From assembly GCA_013329215.1 (NCBI GenBank), contig DUKS01000002.1, forward strand, positions 13,669 to 77,668: a stretch of DNA of 64,000 nt, in the 5' to 3' direction. Source of the stretch: Nanobdellota archaeon (lineage in GTDB: Archaea; Nanobdellota; Nanobdellia; SCGC-AAA011-G17; GW2011-AR17). The position numbers were made by a program, and so were the translations under genes. The first letter of the stretch is position 1. Each line of letters starts with the position of its first letter. The notes under the pieces are model-generated. The model saw nothing but the letters and a program-made list of their open reading frames with translations, searched no databases and was not told where the DNA came from. Positions 16,897-45,737 of the stretch are shown piece by piece.

Positions 16897-18954
16897 CTAT
16901 TGGCCTTTCTTTTTCCAGTGGTTTATCACAAAATCCCCATCTACAACTAGCTCGGTTGCATTTCCCCCGACCATCTCATATAGCATATTATTAAATATTA
17001 CTTCGCACACGCTGTTCAGGCTTCTTGCACCCTGCTTTAATTTTTGCGCGGCTTCTGCTATGGCCTGACGTGCATCTTCTGTCACCTCAAGTCTTATCTT
17101 TGCTTCCCTGAACAGCCTTCTGTAGTGCCTGAGCACCGCCCCCTTGGGCTTTGTTAAAATATCCTGCAATTCGTCTCTTGTGAGCTCATATAAGGGCGCG
17201 CGAATGGGAAATCTCGCAACAAACTCAGGAAGGAAACCATAGTCTATAAGGTCCTGCGGCGTTACCGCCTCAAGCAGTTCATCTGTTTTCAGTTCGTTGC
17301 CTTGTGCGCCGAACCCAAGCTTCCCGCCTTTGCTTTTGGCAACTTTTTCTGTAAGGCTCTCCCCTGAGGAACTTTTTGAAAATGCGCCGCCTGCTATAAA
17401 CAGGATGTTTGTTGTGTCTATGGGGATTGAATCGCCATGGCGGCTCAGCCTGACATTTACAATTGAGCCTTCGACAGGCTTCAGCATCTGCTGCTGCGCT
17501 CCCTGGCCCCCCACATCATGCCCTCCTCCTTCTGTTGCTTTTCTTTTGTCTATTTCATCAAGGAAGATAACTCCTTTTTGGGTTTGTTCTAAGTCTTTTC
17601 CTGCCACGAAGTATAAGTCCCTAACCGGCTCATCGGCCTTGCTACCCCAGATGCCTTCATCTGTTATCTTGGATGCGTCAGAAACAGTGAATGGTATTCG
17701 CCTGCCCAGCATCTTTGCGAGGATTCTTGCGCAAGTAATTGCAGTGTAAGTCTTGCCGCAGCCTGTCGGCCCGAGCAGAAGTATGTTGCTCTTTTTCATC
17801 TCTTCATCTTCATCCTCTGCGCCTTTCTCTCCAATGCTTGTGACCCTGACTGCGTGCGAATAAAGGCCCACTGCAATAATGCGCTTTGCTCTTTCCTGCC
17901 CGATAATATATTCATCCAGCCATTCCTTGATTCTTCTTGGCGGCGGGACTTCTATATCTGAATCGCTGCTTTTTGCCAGCGCTTTCATCTCAAGCTCGCT
18001 TGGCATTTTGCCTTTGATATCTGCAAGGCTCTTGATTTGCCTGAGCATGAAAAGGAGCCCGCTTGAAATATCAAATTCAGGGTTAGCCCTTACATAAGCC
18101 AGGCCTTTTTCATATGCCTTGGCAAGGTCGCCTTTAATACCAGGCAAACTCTGGTCAAGAATATACGCCTTGAACAGGAACTGCACTGCCATCGGCACTG
18201 TTTCAGGGGCATTTTCCAGCATGAAATGCCCATACTTGTGCATAACAGCCGCATTGTCGGGCGCTTCATTCTTGCGGTGCTTCATCATCTGCACAAACGG
18301 CATTGTTTCCATGCCCCCCCCTTCTGATTTCTTCTCCCATATCTTTTTTCCGAACTTCGCAATAAGAAAGTCAGGGTCATCAAACTTCAGCCTGCAGGCA
18401 TTGACCATGCATTCATGCGCCTTGTCTTCGTATTCGCTGTTTGTGCCTTTTGCAAGCGTGTAGAGCTCATGCATTGCCGCATGCAGCCTGGCGTCTTCAG
18501 GGAATACAGAAAGCGCAATCTCGCCGACTTTTATCGCTTCGGGCACCATGTAAGCGCCGGCCTTCGGCATTTCCTGCCCGAGGAATTCCATGTATGAAAG
18601 GTAATTGTCAGGCGTTTCCTGTAGCTTTATCAGTGTTGAATGGTCCCTGCATCGCTTCCTGAATTCTTCTGCAGCCGCTGCGGGATTTTTGTATGCCTCA
18701 GACCCCATTCTTCTTCCGCATTCCAGGGACATTCTGCACATTGCAATCCTCTCTTCAAGCGAATCTGTGCTTGTCCCTGCTACATCGAATGTAGTGCGCG
18801 CATCATCAAAATTTCCATCAAGAAAGCTTCTTACGCCCGCTGCCTTTACGGTTGCATATTTCGTTCTCTCTCTTCTAGATGTTGACAGCTCGCCGCAGCT
18901 AAAACCCTTGCGAAAAGCCGCTGTAAGGTCCGTATTTTCAGGCTTTCCCATCAA
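16897..18954 (-). CDS. ClpX-family AAA+ unfoldase paralog 1 with novel ~330-aa helical N-terminal domain (no zinc finger)
   Basis: C-terminal half is ClpX-like: IKEWLDEYIIGQERAKR, LLLGPTGCGKTY, IFLDEIDK, GGGHDVGGQGAQQQMLK, NILFIAGGAF, LGFGAQ (IGF-loop-like), pore loop GIWG, LIDYGFLPEFVARFP; TATA 18975-18988. Confidence 0.75.
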   Translation of the reverse strand: MMGKPENTDLTAAFRKGFSCGELSTSRRERTKYATVKAAGVRSFLDGNFDDARTTFDVAGTSTDSLEERIAMCRMSLECGRRMGSEAYKNPAAAAEEFRKRCRDHSTLIKLQETPDNYLSYMEFLGQEMPKAGAYMVPEAIKVGEIALSVFPEDARLHAAMHELYTLAKGTNSEYEDKAHECMVNACRLKFDDPDFLIAKFGKKIWEKKSEGGGMETMPFVQMMKHRKNEAPDNAAVMHKYGHFMLENAPETVPMAVQFLFKAYILDQSLPGIKGDLAKAYEKGLAYVRANPEFDISSGLLFMLRQIKSLADIKGKMPSELEMKALAKSSDSDIEVPPPRRIKEWLDEYIIGQERAKRIIAVGLYSHAVRVTSIGEKGAEDEDEEMKKSNILLLGPTGCGKTYTAITCARILAKMLGRRIPFTVSDASKITDEGIWGSKADEPVRDLYFVAGKDLEQTQKGVIFLDEIDKRKATEGGGHDVGGQGAQQQMLKPVEGSIVNVRLSRHGDSIPIDTTNILFIAGGAFSKSSSGESLTEKVAKSKGGKLGFGAQGNELKTDELLEAVTPQDLIDYGFLPEFVARFPIRAPLYELTRDELQDILTKPKGAVLRHYRRLFREAKIRLEVTEDARQAIAEAAQKLKQGARSLNSVCEVIFNNMLYEMVGGNATELVVDGDFVINHWKKKGQ

Positions 18955-18999: not shown

Positions 19000-20988
19000 C
19001 TAATTTTTGCCAACCGCTTTCAAAACCTCTCCCCTTCCTACTGAATAGTTCTTTATGCTGCTGCCAGGCAGGTAAAACAGCGCATCCTCAAAAAGTGAGT
19101 CGCATATTGTCCTTAGGCTTCTTGCGCCTGCATTTAGCGCATATGCCTCTTCTGCTATTGTGTCAAGCGCATCAGGCCTGACATCAAGCTTAACATCTGA
19201 CAGCCTGAACATTTCAACATACTGCGGTATGACCGCATCTGCGGGCTCTGTAAGTATCTTCCTTAATTCCCGCTCGCTTAGCTGCTCAAGCACAATCCTG
19301 TGGTGCAGCCTGCCAACAAACTCGGGTATGAAGCCGTATTCTATCAGGTCCTTGTCTGTGAGGCGGCCGGATATGCCCTTATTCTTGGGCGCTTCTTCAT
19401 GCCCGCCCATTCTAAACCCAATGTGCTTCTCTCTTGCGCCTATAACCTCTCCGATGCTGCCGCCTTCATTTGAAAAGGAAAATGCGCCGCCGACTACAAA
19501 CAGGATATTTGTCGTGTCTATCTGTATATATTTCCCCTGGCTTACTTCAACATTCACGACAGAGCCTTCAAGCAGCTTTAGATACTGCTGCTGCGCCCCC
19601 TCGCCGTTTACGTCCTTGCCCCCTCCCTTTATAGCCCTTATCTTGTCTGCTTCATCAAGATAGACAATCCCTCTTTGCGCGAGCTCAACATTCCCATTTG
19701 CAGCCCCCAGCAAGGCCAGGAGGCACTGCTCTGCTTTGTCCCCCACATATCCGGCGCTTGTCACTTTTGAAGTATCAATCACGACAAACGGAACACCTGA
19801 CATTTTAGCAAGCATGTTAAGCATGTATGTTTTTCCAGAGCCTGTCGGCCCAAGCAGGAGCATGTTGCTCTTGTCCAGCTTTTTCGCATTTTTGTCCATC
19901 GCCTGCCTAAGCCTGAGCAGGTGCATGTAATAGCCGACAGAAACCCCCATCTTTGCTTTTTCCTGTCCTATGACATAATCATCAAGGTGCGCCTTGATTT
20001 CCCGCGGCAGGACTACTTTAACCTCTTTTGAAAACTCCTTGACCTCATCCACTCTTGTTGCATTCGGGTTTTCGTTGCGCAGCTCTTTTTTCAGCTTGGC
20101 GACTTCTGCATAATTTTTGTGCAGCGCCTTAAACTGTTCCCCGTTCTTTCTCCTCCTGAGGCTTGCAGCTGCCTTGTCAAACGCTTCAACGACATCTTTT
20201 TTAATGCCATCAAGCGTCGGCTTTCCTTTCCACGCTTTGTATAAAGTGTAGAGCGCCCATTCTTCATGCGTATTAATGTTCCTGAGCATGTACCTGCCAT
20301 ATTTCTGCAGCGCTTCCGGATTTCTAAGTATTGCGTGCCCTTTGTATTCCATAATAATATAAAATGGAGCCTTTTTCATCTCAAACACCTCGCCTGGCTG
20401 CCAGAGCATTTTGCCGAATTCATTAATGAGGTAGTCGGGGTCATCGAACTTCAGCTTCACCAGCGCTTCAAGCCTTTTTTGCGCTTCTTTGTAGTTTTCG
20501 GTAAACACATATAGCTCGTACATCTCTGAATGAATCCTGTGGTCTTCCGGAAATCTTTCAAGTGCAATTTCCCCTACCCTTATGGCTTCAGCCATCATGT
20601 TTATGTGATGCACTTCCGCCATATCCTTTCCAAGAAAGTTCATGTACGACAGGAAGTTGTCAGCTGTCTCATGCGTTCTTATCGTGAACTCATAAGTGCT
20701 GCGCAGCCTATTGAATTCCTCTTCTGTCGGGCTTATCCTGAAAAGCTGTTTTGCGCAATCCAGCAGTTTCCCGCTGATTGCGTCTTTTTCAGAAACTGAA
20801 TCGGTTTTTGTGAGGGCTGTCATGAAACTAAACTGCGCCTCGAGGTAGTGCTCATCAAGGTAATCCCTCATTGCGTTTGCTTTATTCAGCCTAAATTCCG
20901 CCTTTATTTGATATAAAGAACATAGTCCGGCACAGTCAAAAGAGCCCTTTAGCCTATCTTCAAGGCTTTTGTTGCCTTGCTCTGCCAT
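19000..20988 (-). CDS. ClpX-family AAA+ unfoldase paralog 2 with the same N-terminal domain
   Basis: IKAHLDDYVIGQEKAK, LLLGPTGSGKTY, pore loop GYVGD, IVYLDEADKI, GGGKDVNGEGAQQQYLKLLEG, HIGFRMGG (IGF loop); N-domain aligns with paralog 1 (DNFLSYMNFLG, AIRVGEIALERFPED, KLKFDDPDYLI); likely start MAEQ at 20988, placing the TATA (21011-21018) 26 nt upstream. Confidence 0.75.
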   Translation of the reverse strand: MAEQGNKSLEDRLKGSFDCAGLCSLYQIKAEFRLNKANAMRDYLDEHYLEAQFSFMTALTKTDSVSEKDAISGKLLDCAKQLFRISPTEEEFNRLRSTYEFTIRTHETADNFLSYMNFLGKDMAEVHHINMMAEAIRVGEIALERFPEDHRIHSEMYELYVFTENYKEAQKRLEALVKLKFDDPDYLINEFGKMLWQPGEVFEMKKAPFYIIMEYKGHAILRNPEALQKYGRYMLRNINTHEEWALYTLYKAWKGKPTLDGIKKDVVEAFDKAAASLRRRKNGEQFKALHKNYAEVAKLKKELRNENPNATRVDEVKEFSKEVKVVLPREIKAHLDDYVIGQEKAKMGVSVGYYMHLLRLRQAMDKNAKKLDKSNMLLLGPTGSGKTYMLNMLAKMSGVPFVVIDTSKVTSAGYVGDKAEQCLLALLGAANGNVELAQRGIVYLDEADKIRAIKGGGKDVNGEGAQQQYLKLLEGSVVNVEVSQGKYIQIDTTNILFVVGGAFSFSNEGGSIGEVIGAREKHIGFRMGGHEEAPKNKGISGRLTDKDLIEYGFIPEFVGRLHHRIVLEQLSERELRKILTEPADAVIPQYVEMFRLSDVKLDVRPDALDTIAEEAYALNAGARSLRTICDSLFEDALFYLPGSSIKNYSVGRGEVLKAVGKN

Positions 20989-21079
20989 GCACATATTATA
21001 TGCAGCCGGCTTTATAAACATTCTCCCTTCTATCACACGTTAGAAAAGCTTTTAATCATGCTTCCGCTTTTTCAGCTGT

Positions 21080-27152: not shown

Positions 27153-28052
27153 TCATATCCTACCCTTACTCATCTGTATCAATTCCAGCCACTTATTCGG
27201 GGAACTCAGCGTTAAGTCCGTCGCCAACTCATAAGGGCATTTATTCAGTGATTGGTGCTTTGTTATGAAATTGTAGTATATCTCATATCCCTTTATGATG
27301 AGATTAGCACTTTCAACACTTCCGTGAAAGCCACGCATGGTTTTAGTCCTTGCCCTGATGCTGTTGTGCATCCTTTCAATGGGATAATTGAAGCTACCGC
27401 CGTCAGAAACAACCACTTTGTTATGTAATACATTGTGTTGGCGAAGCTTGTTATTGTAGCCGAAAACCCGCTTAATTACCCTCGGATAAGCCTGCAACCC
27501 ATCTGTTGTAATCATTCTGACATTGTCGGACTTTGCCTTAACCTGCTCCATAACTCTTTTTATTTTATCCGCACTTCTTGATTTAGCAAACTCCGCAGCC
27601 ACCATAAACTTTGTGTCAGGGTCTATGCTGTCTATCAGCCAATTCTTATCTAATCCGCCTCTGATGTGGTGCTTTCGCCTGTGGTATTCCACTTCATCCA
27701 TCTGGATTTCTTCCCCTGTATTCAGCTTCAAGCTGTCTGTAAAGCCTGATATTTGCCTTGCATACTTCCATAGCCATCTTAGAATTGTGCTGTGGTCTGA
27801 ATTATGCGGGTAGAACGCCTGTAAATGCTCCTGCACCTTTCTTGTGCTTACTCCCCTGTAAAACAGGTCAAGGCACAAGGTTATCTTCTGGGGGCTGTTT
27901 CTCATCCTGTAAAAGCCCTCATCCAAGACAAACCTATGAGAGCAATCCGCACATTTGTATCTCTGAATAAGTCCCCTGTTGCCTGTTTTCCGTAGCCCGT
28001 CTTTCTTGATATGCTCTTTCCCGCATTGTTGGCATTTGATTGCTTTTTCCAT
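27153..28052 (-). mobile_element. IS6-family (IS240-like) transposase with N-terminal zinc finger
   Basis: CQQCGK...CADCSH zinc finger; DDE core with ITTDGLQAYPRVI; TATA tatataaa at 28074-28081 about 25 nt upstream of the ATG. Confidence 0.75.
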
Positions 28053-40936: not shown

Positions 40937-41347
40937 TTATTCCCCGAGGTCCTTAACCCAGTCATGGTGCACTATGTGCCTTTTCTGCAGAGACTGCTTT
41001 CCGCAATTCGGGCAAGTGTCGTTAAGCGGGAATGACTTGTTCCTTGAAAACGAGTACTTGCAGTTGCCGCATACATAGCCCACCTTGTCGCTGACTATGT
41101 TTTTTATTCCCATGTCTGCAGCAAGCCTTTCCCTGACGGGAACCGGCTTTTCAACAGGCCTTATTTCCTTTTTTTCCTGCATTCCCATGAGGGAGCTTTT
41201 GACTTTTGAGCCCTTCTCAAGCTTTGCAGCCTTTGAAGCATAGCATTCCGGGCAAATGAGGTTTTTCCTGATTTCAGGGTCATACTTCATGTTGTCCATC
41301 GAGCCTTTTTTTCCGCAGCTTCTGCAGCTGATTTTAACGTCTACCAT
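40937..41347 (-). CDS. Double zinc-ribbon protein
   Basis: CRSCGK...CPEC and CGNCKY...CPNCGK. Confidence 0.5.
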   Translation of the reverse strand: MVDVKISCRSCGKKGSMDNMKYDPEIRKNLICPECYASKAAKLEKGSKVKSSLMGMQEKKEIRPVEKPVPVRERLAADMGIKNIVSDKVGYVCGNCKYSFSRNKSFPLNDTCPNCGKQSLQKRHIVHHDWVKDLGE

Positions 41348-41388: not shown

Positions 41389-42195
41389 TTAATACTGATG
41401 GGGCACAAATATGACTCCGTCAAAGCATTGCTCCATATTGGCATTCTCGCCGCAGCCTTCAATAGGAGCAGGCAGTGCACCCATCTCTTCTCCGTCAAAA
41501 TCATATGCACCATATGCTTGCCTGTAAGGATTGAGCCCTGACGACACGCTCCATATGGGGCTGTCAAAAAGCAGCGAGAACGAACTTGTTTCCTGCTCAA
41601 GCATGAAGCCGAGGGTTTCAACAAGAATCCTTCCGTCATCATAAGGGTTTTCTGCTATGTGCCATGAGCCTATCAGGACTGCGGCTTTCTTCCCATTGGC
41701 AATAAAATTATCCCTCATGAAATCAAACATTGTAATATCCCTTGCCATGTCTATTAAGACTTTGCTTTCCTCTGCATCAATGCACCATATTTTCATATTA
41801 TTTTCCCTTGCCGATTTTAGGATTGTGCCTTTTTCGCCGTTGTAAACCCAGGTTATAAAATTCAGGCGTTCAGCAGGAATCTCGCCTGTTGCAAGATACT
41901 CGTCCATTACAGGCTGGTATGTTCTTGGGATCTCCATTGCAATATCTTCAATGCCATGCTGCTTGAAGTAAGGCATTAGCCCTGCAAAGAATAGGTCATC
42001 TGTTTTTACGTCGTGATTCTCTCCGAAAATTACAAACTGGCTATTCTCAACCTTGGCCATGACATAGGAAACTGCTTGGCTGCCATAATTAAGTGCAGGC
42101 GCAACATACTCTTCATGTTCTGGAATATAGCTTCTATGCATGTATGCGCAGCCAATTCCTGCTAACAATGCAAGGCCTGCGAGCGTTCTTATCAT
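41389..42195 (-). CDS. Secreted ChaN/Tiki/TraB-superfamily protein (GExH motif)
   Basis: Signal peptide; FVIFGENHD...AVLIGSWHI. Confidence 0.45.
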   Translation of the reverse strand: MIRTLAGLALLAGIGCAYMHRSYIPEHEEYVAPALNYGSQAVSYVMAKVENSQFVIFGENHDVKTDDLFFAGLMPYFKQHGIEDIAMEIPRTYQPVMDEYLATGEIPAERLNFITWVYNGEKGTILKSARENNMKIWCIDAEESKVLIDMARDITMFDFMRDNFIANGKKAAVLIGSWHIAENPYDDGRILVETLGFMLEQETSSFSLLFDSPIWSVSSGLNPYRQAYGAYDFDGEEMGALPAPIEGCGENANMEQCFDGVIFVPHQY

Positions 42196-42230: not shown

Positions 42231-44876
42231 CTACAAGCCGAACTCAACCTTTCTCTTGTACTTTACTGCTGAAGGCGCGGCTCCGCCGTGCCACGTCATT
42301 CTTGGGCGCACTCTCATCGGGTAGAACCGTTCAGAATTATCGTCAAGTATTAATGCGGCGCCCTTCACTCTCGGAAGCTCGTCCAGCAGGCGAGGCAATC
42401 CTTTTGCAAGATAGCTCTGGCTCATTGAAGCCAATGCATCAACATCAGGCTTTGCAGTAAGCCTGTGCGCTATGATTATGTCAGACTGGCTCATTACATC
42501 AGAATGAATCTTTCCCGGCTGCTGCGTTGCAAGTATCAGGCATACACCGGGCTGCCTTCCTTCCCTCATGACTGTAACCAAAGCGTTTGTCGCGGCTGTC
42601 TTCCCGTCTTTAGGCAGGAACTCGTGCGCTTCATCCACAACAAGCCACACAAGAGGCAGGGGCTCTTTCTTTCCCAGCTCTTCAGAAGCCTGAAAATAGC
42701 TGTAGCCTATCTTAATTGCCTCGAGCTCTTCTGCTTTTCTTGCCAGCATTCTTTGCGTGAAAACCCTCATTCCAACAAGGCCTATGACCAGCGCCTTTAC
42801 GCCCCATCCGCCGGGAGTTGCAACATACGGCGACAGGTCCATTATAGTCACCTGCCCGGGCTTTACAAGATCCATAAGGTCCATTCCGTTTTCATCAAAC
42901 AAGCCCCACCTTTCAGCAGCCCTGAACCTGTTCACTGCATCATTCTTTATGTCAGAATTAAATGTGCTGTCCTGCTCTATCCTTTCTACTATGTCCTTTA
43001 TGCTGTATCCTGTTACGCCATCATCGAGTATATCCCCCAATATCTTTTCAATGACAACTGCAACAGAATTGTTCGTGTCAAGCTCAAAGCTCAGTATCCA
43101 GTCCTGCGCAGTAAGGTCAGACGGCTTTATTGAGAACGGCTCATCAGTCGGAATCCCATCATCCTTGTATTTCTGGAAAAAGCCGGCAGGCGTGTATATT
43201 TTCACATCCATCCCCCTGCCTGCAATGCCCCACAGCTCAAGCAGGTCCTCGTCCTTCTGGTTCTGGTACTTCATTGTCCAGTAAACGCCCATGGTGTCCA
43301 TCATAATCATTGAGAGGTTTCTTCTTACATCATCAGGCAAATCCATAATGCCTTCTGCAATCGCACCCATCGTATATGAGTTGTGTACAATTATATCATT
43401 TGCGACAAAATTATGGAATTCAGGCACACATATGTCGTAGACTTTAAACTTGCCTTCCATTACTTCGAGGCTTGCAATCTCATCCCAGAATATGTCTGAT
43501 GTTGCAAGGAGCTTTATCTGCTCTGCATTGTCATACTCTGCTATCTGCAGCAATTTCTGCCTTGAAGGCGCATAGCTTATGCTGCTTCTCAATGCTTTTC
43601 CCGAGCTGTATCCCATTTGGGTTCCTACTTCTGCCCAATTCTTAGGCCTGTATATATCCCATATTTCTTTCGGTATTGTGTCAACATTGGGGTTTCTTGT
43701 TATTTTAACTGATTCTTTCAGCGCATACTCTTGTTTTATTTCTTTTTCCCCGAAAAATCCTATTTCTTCAATAAATCTTACAACATTTGCACCATCGAGC
43801 GTAAGCTCGAATGTGTTAAACAGCTTTCCATTGCATTTTGTTTTCTTGTTCCTCAGCTTTGAAAGAATGCCAAACCTTAACAAAAGGCTCTGCACCTGCC
43901 TGATAAGCTTTTCAGAGCTTGATGCATAAGATACTTCCCATGAGCTTTCCTTCTTAAGCCTGTAAATGCTTCCGTCGCAGCTGAAAAGGCGGTTAAGGAA
44001 CACCTTAAGGGGCTCTTTCTTTGCCTTGAATACAATTTCAGGGATAACTTTTTGCGCAGAAAGCAGGTTATGCATGCCTGTTTTTTCAGAAAATTCCCTT
44101 ATGCTCTTTTTCTTATGCTCTATGCTTGTTCCCTTGCCAAACCTTCCGAGTGAATCCCTGTTTATGCTATAGCCTATCACCTGATGATTTTGCTCTTTTG
44201 ACCGTACTCTGTAGCATCCCTTATTATCTTCAACAAGCTCCATATTTTCATCAAATCTGTTTAGGGCTTCTTTAAAATCCGAAATAAGCTTTTCATCAGT
44301 ATTGCTGAACAATACAACCCTCCCTTTTGTATGTCCTTCTGCTATTAAATAAGCCATCAGCTTTGCTTCATGCTCCGGAAGCTCTTCTTTGCCAAATGAA
44401 GGAATATTCCTTGGAACAGCAATCCTATCGCCCAATGTAAGCTGGTTTGCGGGAATCCATCCTTCTATTGTTAATAGGGGATGCTCGGGCGTAAGCTTTA
44501 TTTCCCTGCCGCTTCTCATCCTCATTTTAACTATCTTTTCAACTTCCCTTTCAAAGAAATCCTCTTTTGCCATCGCATCTATCTTCAGCCCGTCATTCAA
44601 CCCGAATATTTTAGCGGAATTATCTTTCAATTCCTGTATTGGCATCTGCGAGCCATCGTCCAATTGGATTAGTGTATCTTCTGTAAGGCATTTCCCGCTT
44701 CCTCTTTTGCCCACAATATAAATAACGTGGCCCCTTGCAATGTCCATGTAAAGCGGGTTTGACAAGGAAGTTGTCCTGCCCATTTTGACATATGTCTTTC
44801 CAATAAGAACAACACCCTGCTTGCCTAAAAGCTTCGTATCCTCTTCATCCCTGCCTATGATTATGTCAAAGGTCAC
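42231..44876 (-). CDS. HerA/FtsK-superfamily (DUF87-like) ATPase interrupted by an intein in the Walker A loop
   Basis: Extein: N-terminal barrel-like region, VGKRGSGK|...|SYTM, Walker B VVDEAHEF, then EGRQPGVCLILATQQP; the intein is 437 aa. Confidence 0.75.
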   Translation of the reverse strand: MTFDIIIGRDEEDTKLLGKQGVVLIGKTYVKMGRTTSLSNPLYMDIARGHVIYIVGKRGSGKCLTEDTLIQLDDGSQMPIQELKDNSAKIFGLNDGLKIDAMAKEDFFEREVEKIVKMRMRSGREIKLTPEHPLLTIEGWIPANQLTLGDRIAVPRNIPSFGKEELPEHEAKLMAYLIAEGHTKGRVVLFSNTDEKLISDFKEALNRFDENMELVEDNKGCYRVRSKEQNHQVIGYSINRDSLGRFGKGTSIEHKKKSIREFSEKTGMHNLLSAQKVIPEIVFKAKKEPLKVFLNRLFSCDGSIYRLKKESSWEVSYASSSEKLIRQVQSLLLRFGILSKLRNKKTKCNGKLFNTFELTLDGANVVRFIEEIGFFGEKEIKQEYALKESVKITRNPNVDTIPKEIWDIYRPKNWAEVGTQMGYSSGKALRSSISYAPSRQKLLQIAEYDNAEQIKLLATSDIFWDEIASLEVMEGKFKVYDICVPEFHNFVANDIIVHNSYTMGAIAEGIMDLPDDVRRNLSMIMMDTMGVYWTMKYQNQKDEDLLELWGIAGRGMDVKIYTPAGFFQKYKDDGIPTDEPFSIKPSDLTAQDWILSFELDTNNSVAVVIEKILGDILDDGVTGYSIKDIVERIEQDSTFNSDIKNDAVNRFRAAERWGLFDENGMDLMDLVKPGQVTIMDLSPYVATPGGWGVKALVIGLVGMRVFTQRMLARKAEELEAIKIGYSYFQASEELGKKEPLPLVWLVVDEAHEFLPKDGKTAATNALVTVMREGRQPGVCLILATQQPGKIHSDVMSQSDIIIAHRLTAKPDVDALASMSQSYLAKGLPRLLDELPRVKGAALILDDNSERFYPMRVRPRMTWHGGAAPSAVKYKRKVEFGL
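43380..44690 (-). mobile_element. Intein with LAGLIDADG homing-endonuclease domain (approximate coordinates)
   Basis: Begins CLTEDTLIQLDDG right after GSGK; LAGLIDADG-like LMAYLIAEGH and NRLFSCDGSIY; ends IIVHN followed by S+1. Confidence 0.7.
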
Positions 44877-45119
44877 GTTATATTAAGGGTATTTGAGGGA
44901 TATAAGCTTTTCGAGCGGAGTGAAGAAATGCTGAAAACCCACATGGGGTTTTGGCACAAGAAACGCAAAGCGTTTCTATGAGTTTCAAACGTAGTGAGAA
45001 AGCTTTATTGTGGGATAAATAAGCCTGCTGCAAATAAGAAAGCCGGCCTCCGGCATATTTTCATTATTTATCCTTGCTTATGCCCAAAAGAATTTAAGCT
45101 AAACATACTTAATCCTAAT

Positions 45120-45737
45120 ATGCCTGCCTTGCTGATTGGATTTGACCCTCCGGGAGAGGTATGTAAGGAGATTTATAGATTAAAGAGCAGGGTTAAGGAA
45201 GCTTGCGGTCAGCAGCAGCAGGTGGATGAGCCGCCTCACTGCACTTTTGTCGTGAATAATTTTAGTGATATTAAAGCAGTTGATGATATTTTAAAATCTG
45301 TATGCCTTGGATTTTCACCGTTGGATATAAGCATGAAAAATATAACCTATTTTCCGCCTGAAAAAAACAAGGCGTGGATGGTTCATGCTGCAATTGAAAG
45401 GAACATAAGGTTGCAGGAGCTGCAAAAAGAGGTAATTGACAAAACGTCTGCTTTCAGGCAAGGCTGTTTGCTCTGTGATTATTTGCAAAGGAACATACCT
45501 GATTATCAGTATAGCGAAGAAGAAAAGAAGGACATACAGCAATATGGCTATCCTTATGTTGGCGCAAACTGGCAGGCACACATAAGCGTTGCAATTCTTG
45601 ATGAAAAAGCGTTTAAAAAGATTGGTGACGAGCTTATAGGCACTGCTTTTCAGCATAAGTTCAAATTGAAAGAGATTACATTGTTTATTTATACGGATAA
45701 ATGGGTGCCATATAAAACTTACAAGCTATGCAAATAA
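45120..45737 (+). CDS. 2H phosphoesterase (LigT/ThpR-like)
   Basis: Two HxT/S motifs: HCTFVV and HISVAI. Confidence 0.65.
   Translation: MPALLIGFDPPGEVCKEIYRLKSRVKEACGQQQQVDEPPHCTFVVNNFSDIKAVDDILKSVCLGFSPLDISMKNITYFPPEKNKAWMVHAAIERNIRLQELQKEVIDKTSAFRQGCLLCDYLQRNIPDYQYSEEEKKDIQQYGYPYVGANWQAHISVAILDEKAFKKIGDELIGTAFQHKFKLKEITLFIYTDKWVPYKTYKLCK

Follow-up and report, generated by a model that had tools for sequence, protein, structure and literature searches.

A LAGLIDADG intein in the ATP-binding loop of a HerA-clade ATPase from a DPANN archaeon

The classic P-loop inteins are those that split the Walker A motif of their host between its invariant Lys and the Ser/Thr that follows (PMC5050341). 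According to a survey that Novikova et al. published in 2016, the DnaB-b, MCM-a and RFC-a inteins sit at analogous P-loop sites, inteins are concentrated in proteins of replication and repair, and intein hot spots are typical of ATPases with such roles (PMC4760082). The main text of that survey makes no mention of a HerA/DUF87-type host, and a search for literature linking inteins with HerA, DUF87, DPANN (the Diapherotrites-Parvarchaeota-Aenigmarchaeota-Nanoarchaeota-Nanohaloarchaeota assemblage), Woesearchaeota or Nanoarchaeota found nothing relevant. Here we describe a gene for an 881-residue protein in a 64,000-nucleotide stretch of a Nanobdellota archaeon (contig DUKS01000002.1, positions 13,669 to 77,668; the window). 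The gene very probably encodes the precursor of a P-loop ATPase of the HerA clade that is interrupted by a 437-residue class-1 intein with a LAGLIDADG endonuclease, much as a first-pass annotation, made from the sequence alone, had proposed.

Three groups of described inteins bear comparison with this element. It shares with the DnaB-b P-loop inteins (those of cyanobacterial and acidobacterial DnaB and M. smegmatis DnaBi1) the site between Lys and Ser/Thr of Walker A, the class-1 organization, a two-motif LAGLIDADG endonuclease and the same helical extension; however, DnaB is a bacterial superfamily 4 helicase of the RecA fold with Thr as the +1 residue, whereas the present host is a DPANN ATPase of the FtsK-HerA clade with Ser at +1. 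The MCM-a, RFC-S-a, P. horikoshii RadA and TerL1-a inteins occupy the same position in the ATP-binding loop (PMC4760082; PMC5050341), but in different host families. The TliVMA and PhoVMA inteins, PI-PfuI, PI-TkoII and PI-SceI have the same two-domain architecture (Foldseek E 4e-26 to 1e-12, TM-score up to 0.68), although they are only 10-20% identical in sequence and reside in different hosts. The element is a bona fide class-1 intein at the canonical P-loop position between Lys and Ser, a kind that is already well known.

Insertion site and anatomy of the intein

The insertion falls between the invariant Lys62 and the Ser of Walker A (GKRGSGK↓C...HN↓S, arrows marking the junctions). At the N-terminal junction the protein reads ...HVIYIVGKRGSGK↓CLTEDTLIQLDDG..., the insert starting at the arrow, and exactly 437 residues later the C-terminal junction reads ...FVANDIIVHN↓SYTMGAIAEG.... 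The predicted spliced product is 444 residues long (about 445 had been estimated, close to but not exactly this value), which equals the length of the family: a search with the spliced extein returned 6708 proteins, the best 120 of which are nearly all of 435-450 residues and, where a source is named, are labelled Woesearchaeota, Nanoarchaeota, Nanoarchaeia or just ‘archaeon’. The closest orthologue (P0001) is 84% identical, is itself 444 residues long and has no insert. Intein-free DPANN orthologues that are colinear with the 444-residue protein number in the hundreds; they have GKRGSGK and SYTMG contiguous, as the comparison with intein-free relatives suggested by the first-pass annotation would have it, and their alignment with the window protein breaks exactly between K62 and S63. 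Both residues (spliced numbering) are invariant in 42 orthologues, which makes the serine of Walker A the +1 nucleophile: a Ser does stand at +1, as previously described, but it does not replace the Walker A residue. As the insert separates the Walker A Lys from this Ser, the P-loop of the precursor is not intact before splicing.

This colinearity bears directly on whether the insert is an intein at all, rather than a domain native to the ATPase, a free-standing endonuclease gene that became fused to it, a pseudogene or an artefact of assembly. An open reading frame (ORF) twice the length of its family might raise that suspicion, as might the gene of a relative, L008 (ENA ERZ1286166; 4756-7385), which contains the same full intein and is split by three 1-nt deletions; nothing else speaks for it. 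Yet all splicing residues are present, the junctions are exact, and the intact 881-residue architecture recurs in separate assemblies, the identical protein being found in four sequence records (NCBI, Logan/ENA, JGI). We do not take the breaks in L008 as a sign of decay: these three single-base deletions are most simply, and probably, sequencing errors, the contig name suggesting a long-read assembly. The colinearity rules out a native domain shared with orthologues in alignment, and we regard any explanation of this non-intein kind as exceedingly improbable.

The precursor gene (42231..44876, minus strand, as are all its parts given below) starts with GTG, and its product is identical to HII14776.1, labelled at NCBI as ‘hypothetical protein [Nanoarchaeota archaeon]’ with neither an intein nor an ATPase named. 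The N-extein (residues 1-62; 44691..44876) comprises a small N-terminal β-barrel and strand β1, its last residues being the Walker A segment GKRGSGK (44691..44711). The intein itself (residues 63-499; 43380..44690) extends from Cys1 to the terminal His-Asn. Its first 100 residues (44391..44690) form the N-terminal Hint splicing half, with block A (CLTEDTL) and block B (GREIKLTPEHPLL), in which the TxxH signature is T67-P-E-H70. Residues 101-312 (43755..44390) are the core of the LAGLIDADG homing endonuclease, with motif 1 (KLMAYLIAEGH; 44331..44363) and motif 2 (KVFLNRLFSCDGS; 43968..44006), the two LAGLIDADG helices each bearing a terminal acidic residue at the catalytic position (LIAE118G and SCD239G, respectively). 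There follows a helical extension of the endonuclease (residues 313-397; 43500..43754) with a conserved NPNxDTIPKEIW...PSRQKLLQIA segment, which is probably an extra DNA-recognition region. The C-terminal Hint half (residues 398-437; 43380..43499) contains block F (VYDICVPEFHNFVAN) and block G (DIIVHN). The C-extein (residues 500-881 and the stop codon; 42231..43379) begins at Ser+1 (43377..43379) and includes a helical-bundle insert, the Walker B motif VWLVVDEAHE (42621..42650), where the family has its second intein site, unoccupied here, and the arginine segment REGRQPG (42546..42566). The first-pass annotation had placed the ORF, both junctions, the LAGLIDADG-like blocks, Walker B and REGRQPG correctly.

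Profile matches to the precursor comprise Intein_splicing (Pfam, E 4.5e-24, residues 72-499), LAGLIDADG_3 (E 9.5e-24, in two stretches) and the NCBIfam models intein_Nterm (1.4e-13) and intein_Cterm (TIGR01443; 8.8e-6), and DUF87 (Pfam, 4.9e-12) is detected only once the insert is removed; with these E-values the intein signal lies far beyond chance. The insert scores 266 bits against the intein part of the NCBIfam model of intein-containing DnaB, and the solved sequences closest to it are the Npu (E 1.7e-19) and Ssp (1.3e-17) DnaB mini-inteins, which align over both Hint halves, the block B match being TPEH/TGNH and that of blocks F and G VYDICVPEFHNFVANDIIVHN. Among 40 related inteins that were aligned, C1, H70, D419, N427, F428, H436 and N437 are invariant, and T67 and both LAGLIDADG motifs (LAYLIAE118G, FLNRLFSCD239G) are at least 90% conserved; blocks A, B, F and G, named beforehand as the features to look for, and the two endonuclease motifs are conserved across this set. 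The nucleophile of the precursor is Cys63 (intein Cys1), and the +1 residue is Ser500. Cys1, TxxH, the block F Asp, the C-terminal His-Asn and Ser+1, the residues on which class-1 splicing depends, are all in place, and the earlier class-1 assignment, made from Cys1, the terminal HN and the +1 Ser, finds support in the Pfam and NCBIfam matches.

The predicted fold is in keeping with this anatomy. An AlphaFold (AF2) model of the intein (predicted local distance difference test, pLDDT, 93; predicted TM-score, pTM, 0.91) was searched with Foldseek against the PDB, as were all models reported here. TliVMA is the best match (E 4e-26, TM-score 0.68), and PI-PfuI, PI-TkoII and PI-SceI are also recovered. 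The Hint part superposes on the Npu DnaB, Ssp DnaB and Mtu RecA inteins with a root-mean-square deviation of 1.3-1.7 Å, and the endonuclease adopts the pseudo-dimeric α-β-β-α-β-β-α fold, with matches to PI-PfuI, PI-TkoII, PI-SceI, I-Tsp061I and I-OnuI-type enzymes.

By canonical class-1 chemistry, an N-S acyl shift at Cys63 would be followed by transfer of the N-extein to the hydroxyl of Ser500; Asn499 would then cyclise with the help of His498, freeing the intein, and an O-N shift would re-form the K62-S63 peptide bond, and hence the ATP-binding loop. The P-loop of the ATPase would be non-functional until this sequence of reactions is complete.

Alleles, selection and mobility

The same ATPase family with the same junction (GKRGxGK↓C...HN↓SY) accounts for 89 of the 120 best intein matches, and these 89 inteins are 45-57% identical to the one in the window over the full length, endonuclease included. 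Other orthologues have mini-inteins at this site: that of P0015 is a deletion derivative of the window intein lineage from which the whole endonuclease is gone, and those of P0002, P0012 and P0014 form a second lineage ending in ..GGIVCHN. Within the clade of exteins that are at least 82% identical, the site holds a full intein in the window, L009 and L008 and a mini-intein in P0002 (93% identical to P0001), and is empty in L001/P0001. The empty allele of L001 reads TACATTGTGGGTAAGAGAGGCAGCGGAAAA↓AGCTACACAATGGGCGCAATAGCAGAAGGC at the site. All states of the homing cycle, full, mini and empty, are thus represented in one clade. The flanks of L008 are unlike those of the window, with an MmeI-type restriction-modification gene and a DDE transposase.

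The intein is predicted to encode a single-chain, two-motif LAGLIDADG endonuclease, which would most likely cut an allele that lacks the intein, in the sequence that codes for the P-loop, at about TATATTGTGGGCAAAAGAGGAAGCGGGAAA↓TCATATACGATGGGTGCGATTGCAGAAGGC; repair of the break would then copy the intein into the empty allele. Selection on the two parts of the gene could be compared with L009, which has an intact 881-residue ORF and the same Lhr neighbour as the window. The ratio of nonsynonymous to synonymous substitution rates (Ka/Ks) is 0.062 for the intein, 0.070 for its endonuclease domain and 0.057 for the exteins, and selection on the endonuclease is therefore as strong as on the host ATPase. 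The synonymous rate (Ks) is 0.96 for the intein vs 1.59 for the exteins in this comparison, and nucleotide identity to L008 is 83.7% for the intein vs 77.9% for the exteins. The G+C content at third codon positions (GC3) is 0.42 in the intein, 0.50-0.55 in the exteins and 0.50-0.56 in seven other genes of the window. The lower divergence of the intein relative to its host gene suggests either transfer after the lineages split or an extra synonymous constraint; together with the distinct GC3, it would fit later horizontal spread, with Ks near saturation and codon bias as a possible contributor.

These figures also bear on the alternative that the intein splices while its endonuclease is inactive, the element decaying toward a mini-intein by vertical inheritance only. 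The mini-inteins of the same lineage at this very site, with P0015 lacking the entire endonuclease, show where such a course would lead. Against it, however, stand the low Ka/Ks of the endonuclease domain, the conservation of both acidic residues and both motifs in the 40 homologues, the lower divergence of the intein than of the exteins in two independent comparisons and its GC3, which differs from that of the host gene. We consider this outcome unlikely.

A further alternative is that a real intein has been kept as a post-translational switch, with conditional splicing in response to redox state, metal or temperature gating a core ATPase. The site in the ATP-binding loop, by which the precursor must be inactive, suits this idea, as do the persistence of the intein in three lineages diverged to a Ks of about 1 and the equal strength of selection on intein and host protein; a case for the selective retention of P-loop inteins has been made in the literature (PMC4760082), and conditional splicing is on record for the P-loop inteins of P. 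horikoshii RadA and M. smegmatis DnaB. However, an active homing element, but not a switch, would be expected to show purifying selection on its endonuclease domain, most orthologues are without any intein, and the closest relatives have empty and mini-intein alleles. Moreover, no conserved extra Cys partner is seen: the block F Cys of the window intein is Thr in the mini-inteins of P0002, P0012, P0014 and P0015. A switch is in our estimate quite unlikely.

We favour a homing intein with a probably active endonuclease in a HerA-clade precursor, and four points weigh against it. Both splicing and DNA cleavage by the intein are predictions. Only one of the 80 best GTDB species representatives (L009) has an intein at the P-loop site, which marks the element as rare and leaves its homing in these organisms an assumption. 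With Ks near saturation, the lower value for the intein is no more than a hint of later transfer. Finally, no conserved partner gene of the host was found in 89 related loci.

The profile search recovered a second insertion point of the family, in Walker B (VVDE↓C...VHN↓CHEFLP). In the window this second site is unoccupied, and VVDEAHEF has an Ala in place of the +1 Cys of intein-bearing members. P0242 and P0250 have an intein at Walker B only; P0241 combines a P-loop mini-intein with a full Walker B intein; P0243 (1308 residues) and P0263 (1300 residues) have full LAGLIDADG inteins at both sites. P0269 is also listed among the members with the Walker B site. With two insertion sites, in Walker A and Walker B, the ATPase family is therefore an intein hot spot.

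The host ATPase and its genomic context

The AlphaFold model of the extein (pLDDT 87, pTM 0.87) comprises a short N-terminal β-barrel of about 50 residues, a RecA-like core and a helical insert. The solved structures that match it best are the HerA proteins of T. kodakarensis (9x1m) and S. solfataricus (4d2i), with E 3e-19 to 6e-18 and a query TM-score (TMq) of 0.55-0.67, followed by anti-phage HerA proteins. The barrel, the RecA-like core, the helical insert, Walker A and B, the REGRQPG segment and the DUF87 match are all shared with these two HerA proteins and anti-phage HerA, and the alignment of the extein to HerA/DUF87 families that had been suggested thus yields both family matches and a model that matches solved HerA structures. 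However, the extein is shorter than HerA (444 vs 500-600 residues), its sequence similarity to HerA is confined to the C-terminal half, and it falls far below the cut-offs of the NCBIfam HerA equivalogs NF040819 and NF040937 (49.4 bits vs 970 and 33.9 vs 800, respectively). Unlike HerA and anti-phage HerA, it has no NurA, Mre11, Rad50, Sir2 or DUF4297 neighbour and sits amid housekeeping genes (Lhr, LeuRS, FtsJ, DnaG and RFC among them). The HerA/DUF87 assignment thus holds at the level of fold and superfamily, but not as orthology to HerA: with a score of 49 bits against 970 and no NurA, the host is a member of the HerA clade of the FtsK-HerA superfamily and not HerA proper. It is probably a ring-forming, DNA-dependent ATPase, and may act as a translocase.

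The host is a core, single-copy chromosomal gene of the Nanoarchaeota/Woesearchaeota (DPANN). A relative occurs in at least 598 GTDB species representatives, and 1.84 billion cluster representatives, when searched with a profile, gave 6714 matches, 368 of them below 1e-30. The distant relatives (P0299-P0388; E 1e-67 to 1e-87) are of 600-1650 residues, and in five of the nine that were scanned (P0301, P0304, P0319, P0337, P0369) the ATPase module is fused to a winged helix-turn-helix (ArsR/MarR/TrmB), SAP or DUF835 domain, which hints at a DNA-related role of the family. Many GTDB representatives that encode the DPANN-type ATPase (L013, L015, L018 and others) are titled ‘uncultured Methanosarcinales archaeon’; the sole complete chromosome among them is of 0.77 Mb (OZ246410.1), and these organism names look unreliable.

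Genes for NurA, Mre11 and Rad50 are absent from the scanned ORFs of the window, confirming that no nurA lies nearby, and from the listed Pfam calls of L001-L007. Neighbour clustering in the 89 related loci yields no constant partner, the neighbours being variable housekeeping genes (a PpiC-like protein, DnaG primase, an aminoacyl-tRNA synthetase, a 101-residue protein, FtsJ and RFC). The L001 locus is syntenic with the window over Lhr, the ATPase, the zinc-ribbon protein, LeuRS, FtsJ, Trm5 and FEN1, with FttA/Fic further out, and in more distant genomes FtsJ directly follows the ATPase. A role in defence was considered and rejected: PADLOC gave partial matches to the HerA core only, with no defence-system context.

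Downstream of the ATPase, on the same strand as had been described, lie a ChaN/Tiki-like gene (PF04187, 7e-8; 41389..42195) and a zinc-ribbon gene (40937..41347). We rejected both as conserved partners: ChaN is not at the syntenic locus of L001, and the zinc-ribbon gene is common only to this close relative. The ChaN/Tiki-like gene has a low GC3 (0.446); it is missing from the otherwise syntenic L001 locus, where a 105-residue ORF takes its position, and looks like a lineage-specific gene that is no partner of the ATPase. Upstream, a 2H-phosphoesterase/LigT-like gene (44994..45737, plus strand) separates the ATPase from the divergently arranged Lhr helicase; this gene does not occur at that position in L001.

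The window as a whole is a piece of archaeal chromosome with genes for MCM, NrdD, CDC48, PolB, FttA, LeuRS and FEN1, none of which contains an intein; it has no tRNA genes. Further features on the minus strand include two adjacent paralogous genes for ClpB-like AAA_2 ATPases with a D2-small domain, of about 680 residues each (16897..18954 and 19000..21036), with a TPR match in one of the two, and an ORF for an IS240-type DDE transposase (PF13610, 6.4e-10; 27153..28052) surrounded by housekeeping genes.

Relatives in other ATPases and significance

Outside the host family, every full-length match with readable junctions lies between the Lys and the Ser/Thr of Walker A in another ATPase. These outgroup junctions include those of bacterial DnaB (RPSMGK↓C...VHN↓TAFxLN; 30-37% identity over 437 residues), of a Rad51/RadA-type protein (AVGK↓C...HN↓T) and of others (FTGK↓C...HN↓S and RRVGK↓C...HN↓T). 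The best PDB matches, the Ssp and Npu DnaB inteins, might point to a special kinship with the inteins of the DnaB H4 site. This we rejected: where a DnaB protein has two inteins, the one in the P-loop (138-166 bits) is clearly closer than the one at the H4 site (55-73 bits). The sequence evidence suggests that the P-loop inteins of non-orthologous ATPases are each other’s closest relatives.

It is possible, though we offer this tentatively, that one endonuclease-bearing intein lineage moved repeatedly among Walker A Lys-Ser/Thr sites across domains, with the conserved P-loop coding sequence as a shared landing site and with bacterial DnaB, RadA/KaiC-like proteins, other ATPases and the DPANN HerA-like ATPase as its hosts. 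Proteins of the replisome and of DNA repair are typical intein hot spots, so the DPANN host, with two insertion sites in its family, may be an unrecognised core motor that handles DNA.

The finding does not overturn current understanding. It resolves a ‘hypothetical’ protein of 881 residues into what is, if splicing proceeds as predicted, a 444-residue ATPase and a free homing endonuclease, and adds to the hosts of the classic P-loop inteins a HerA-clade DPANN ATPase from a family not so far listed as intein-carrying. It also provides a natural series of full intein, mini-intein and empty allele at one site; further value lies in a host family that had no annotation and has two intein sites, and in the mutual kinship of P-loop inteins. 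For the biology of these archaea, the intein flags an uncharacterised, near-universal ATPase of Nanoarchaeota and Woesearchaeota as worth study.

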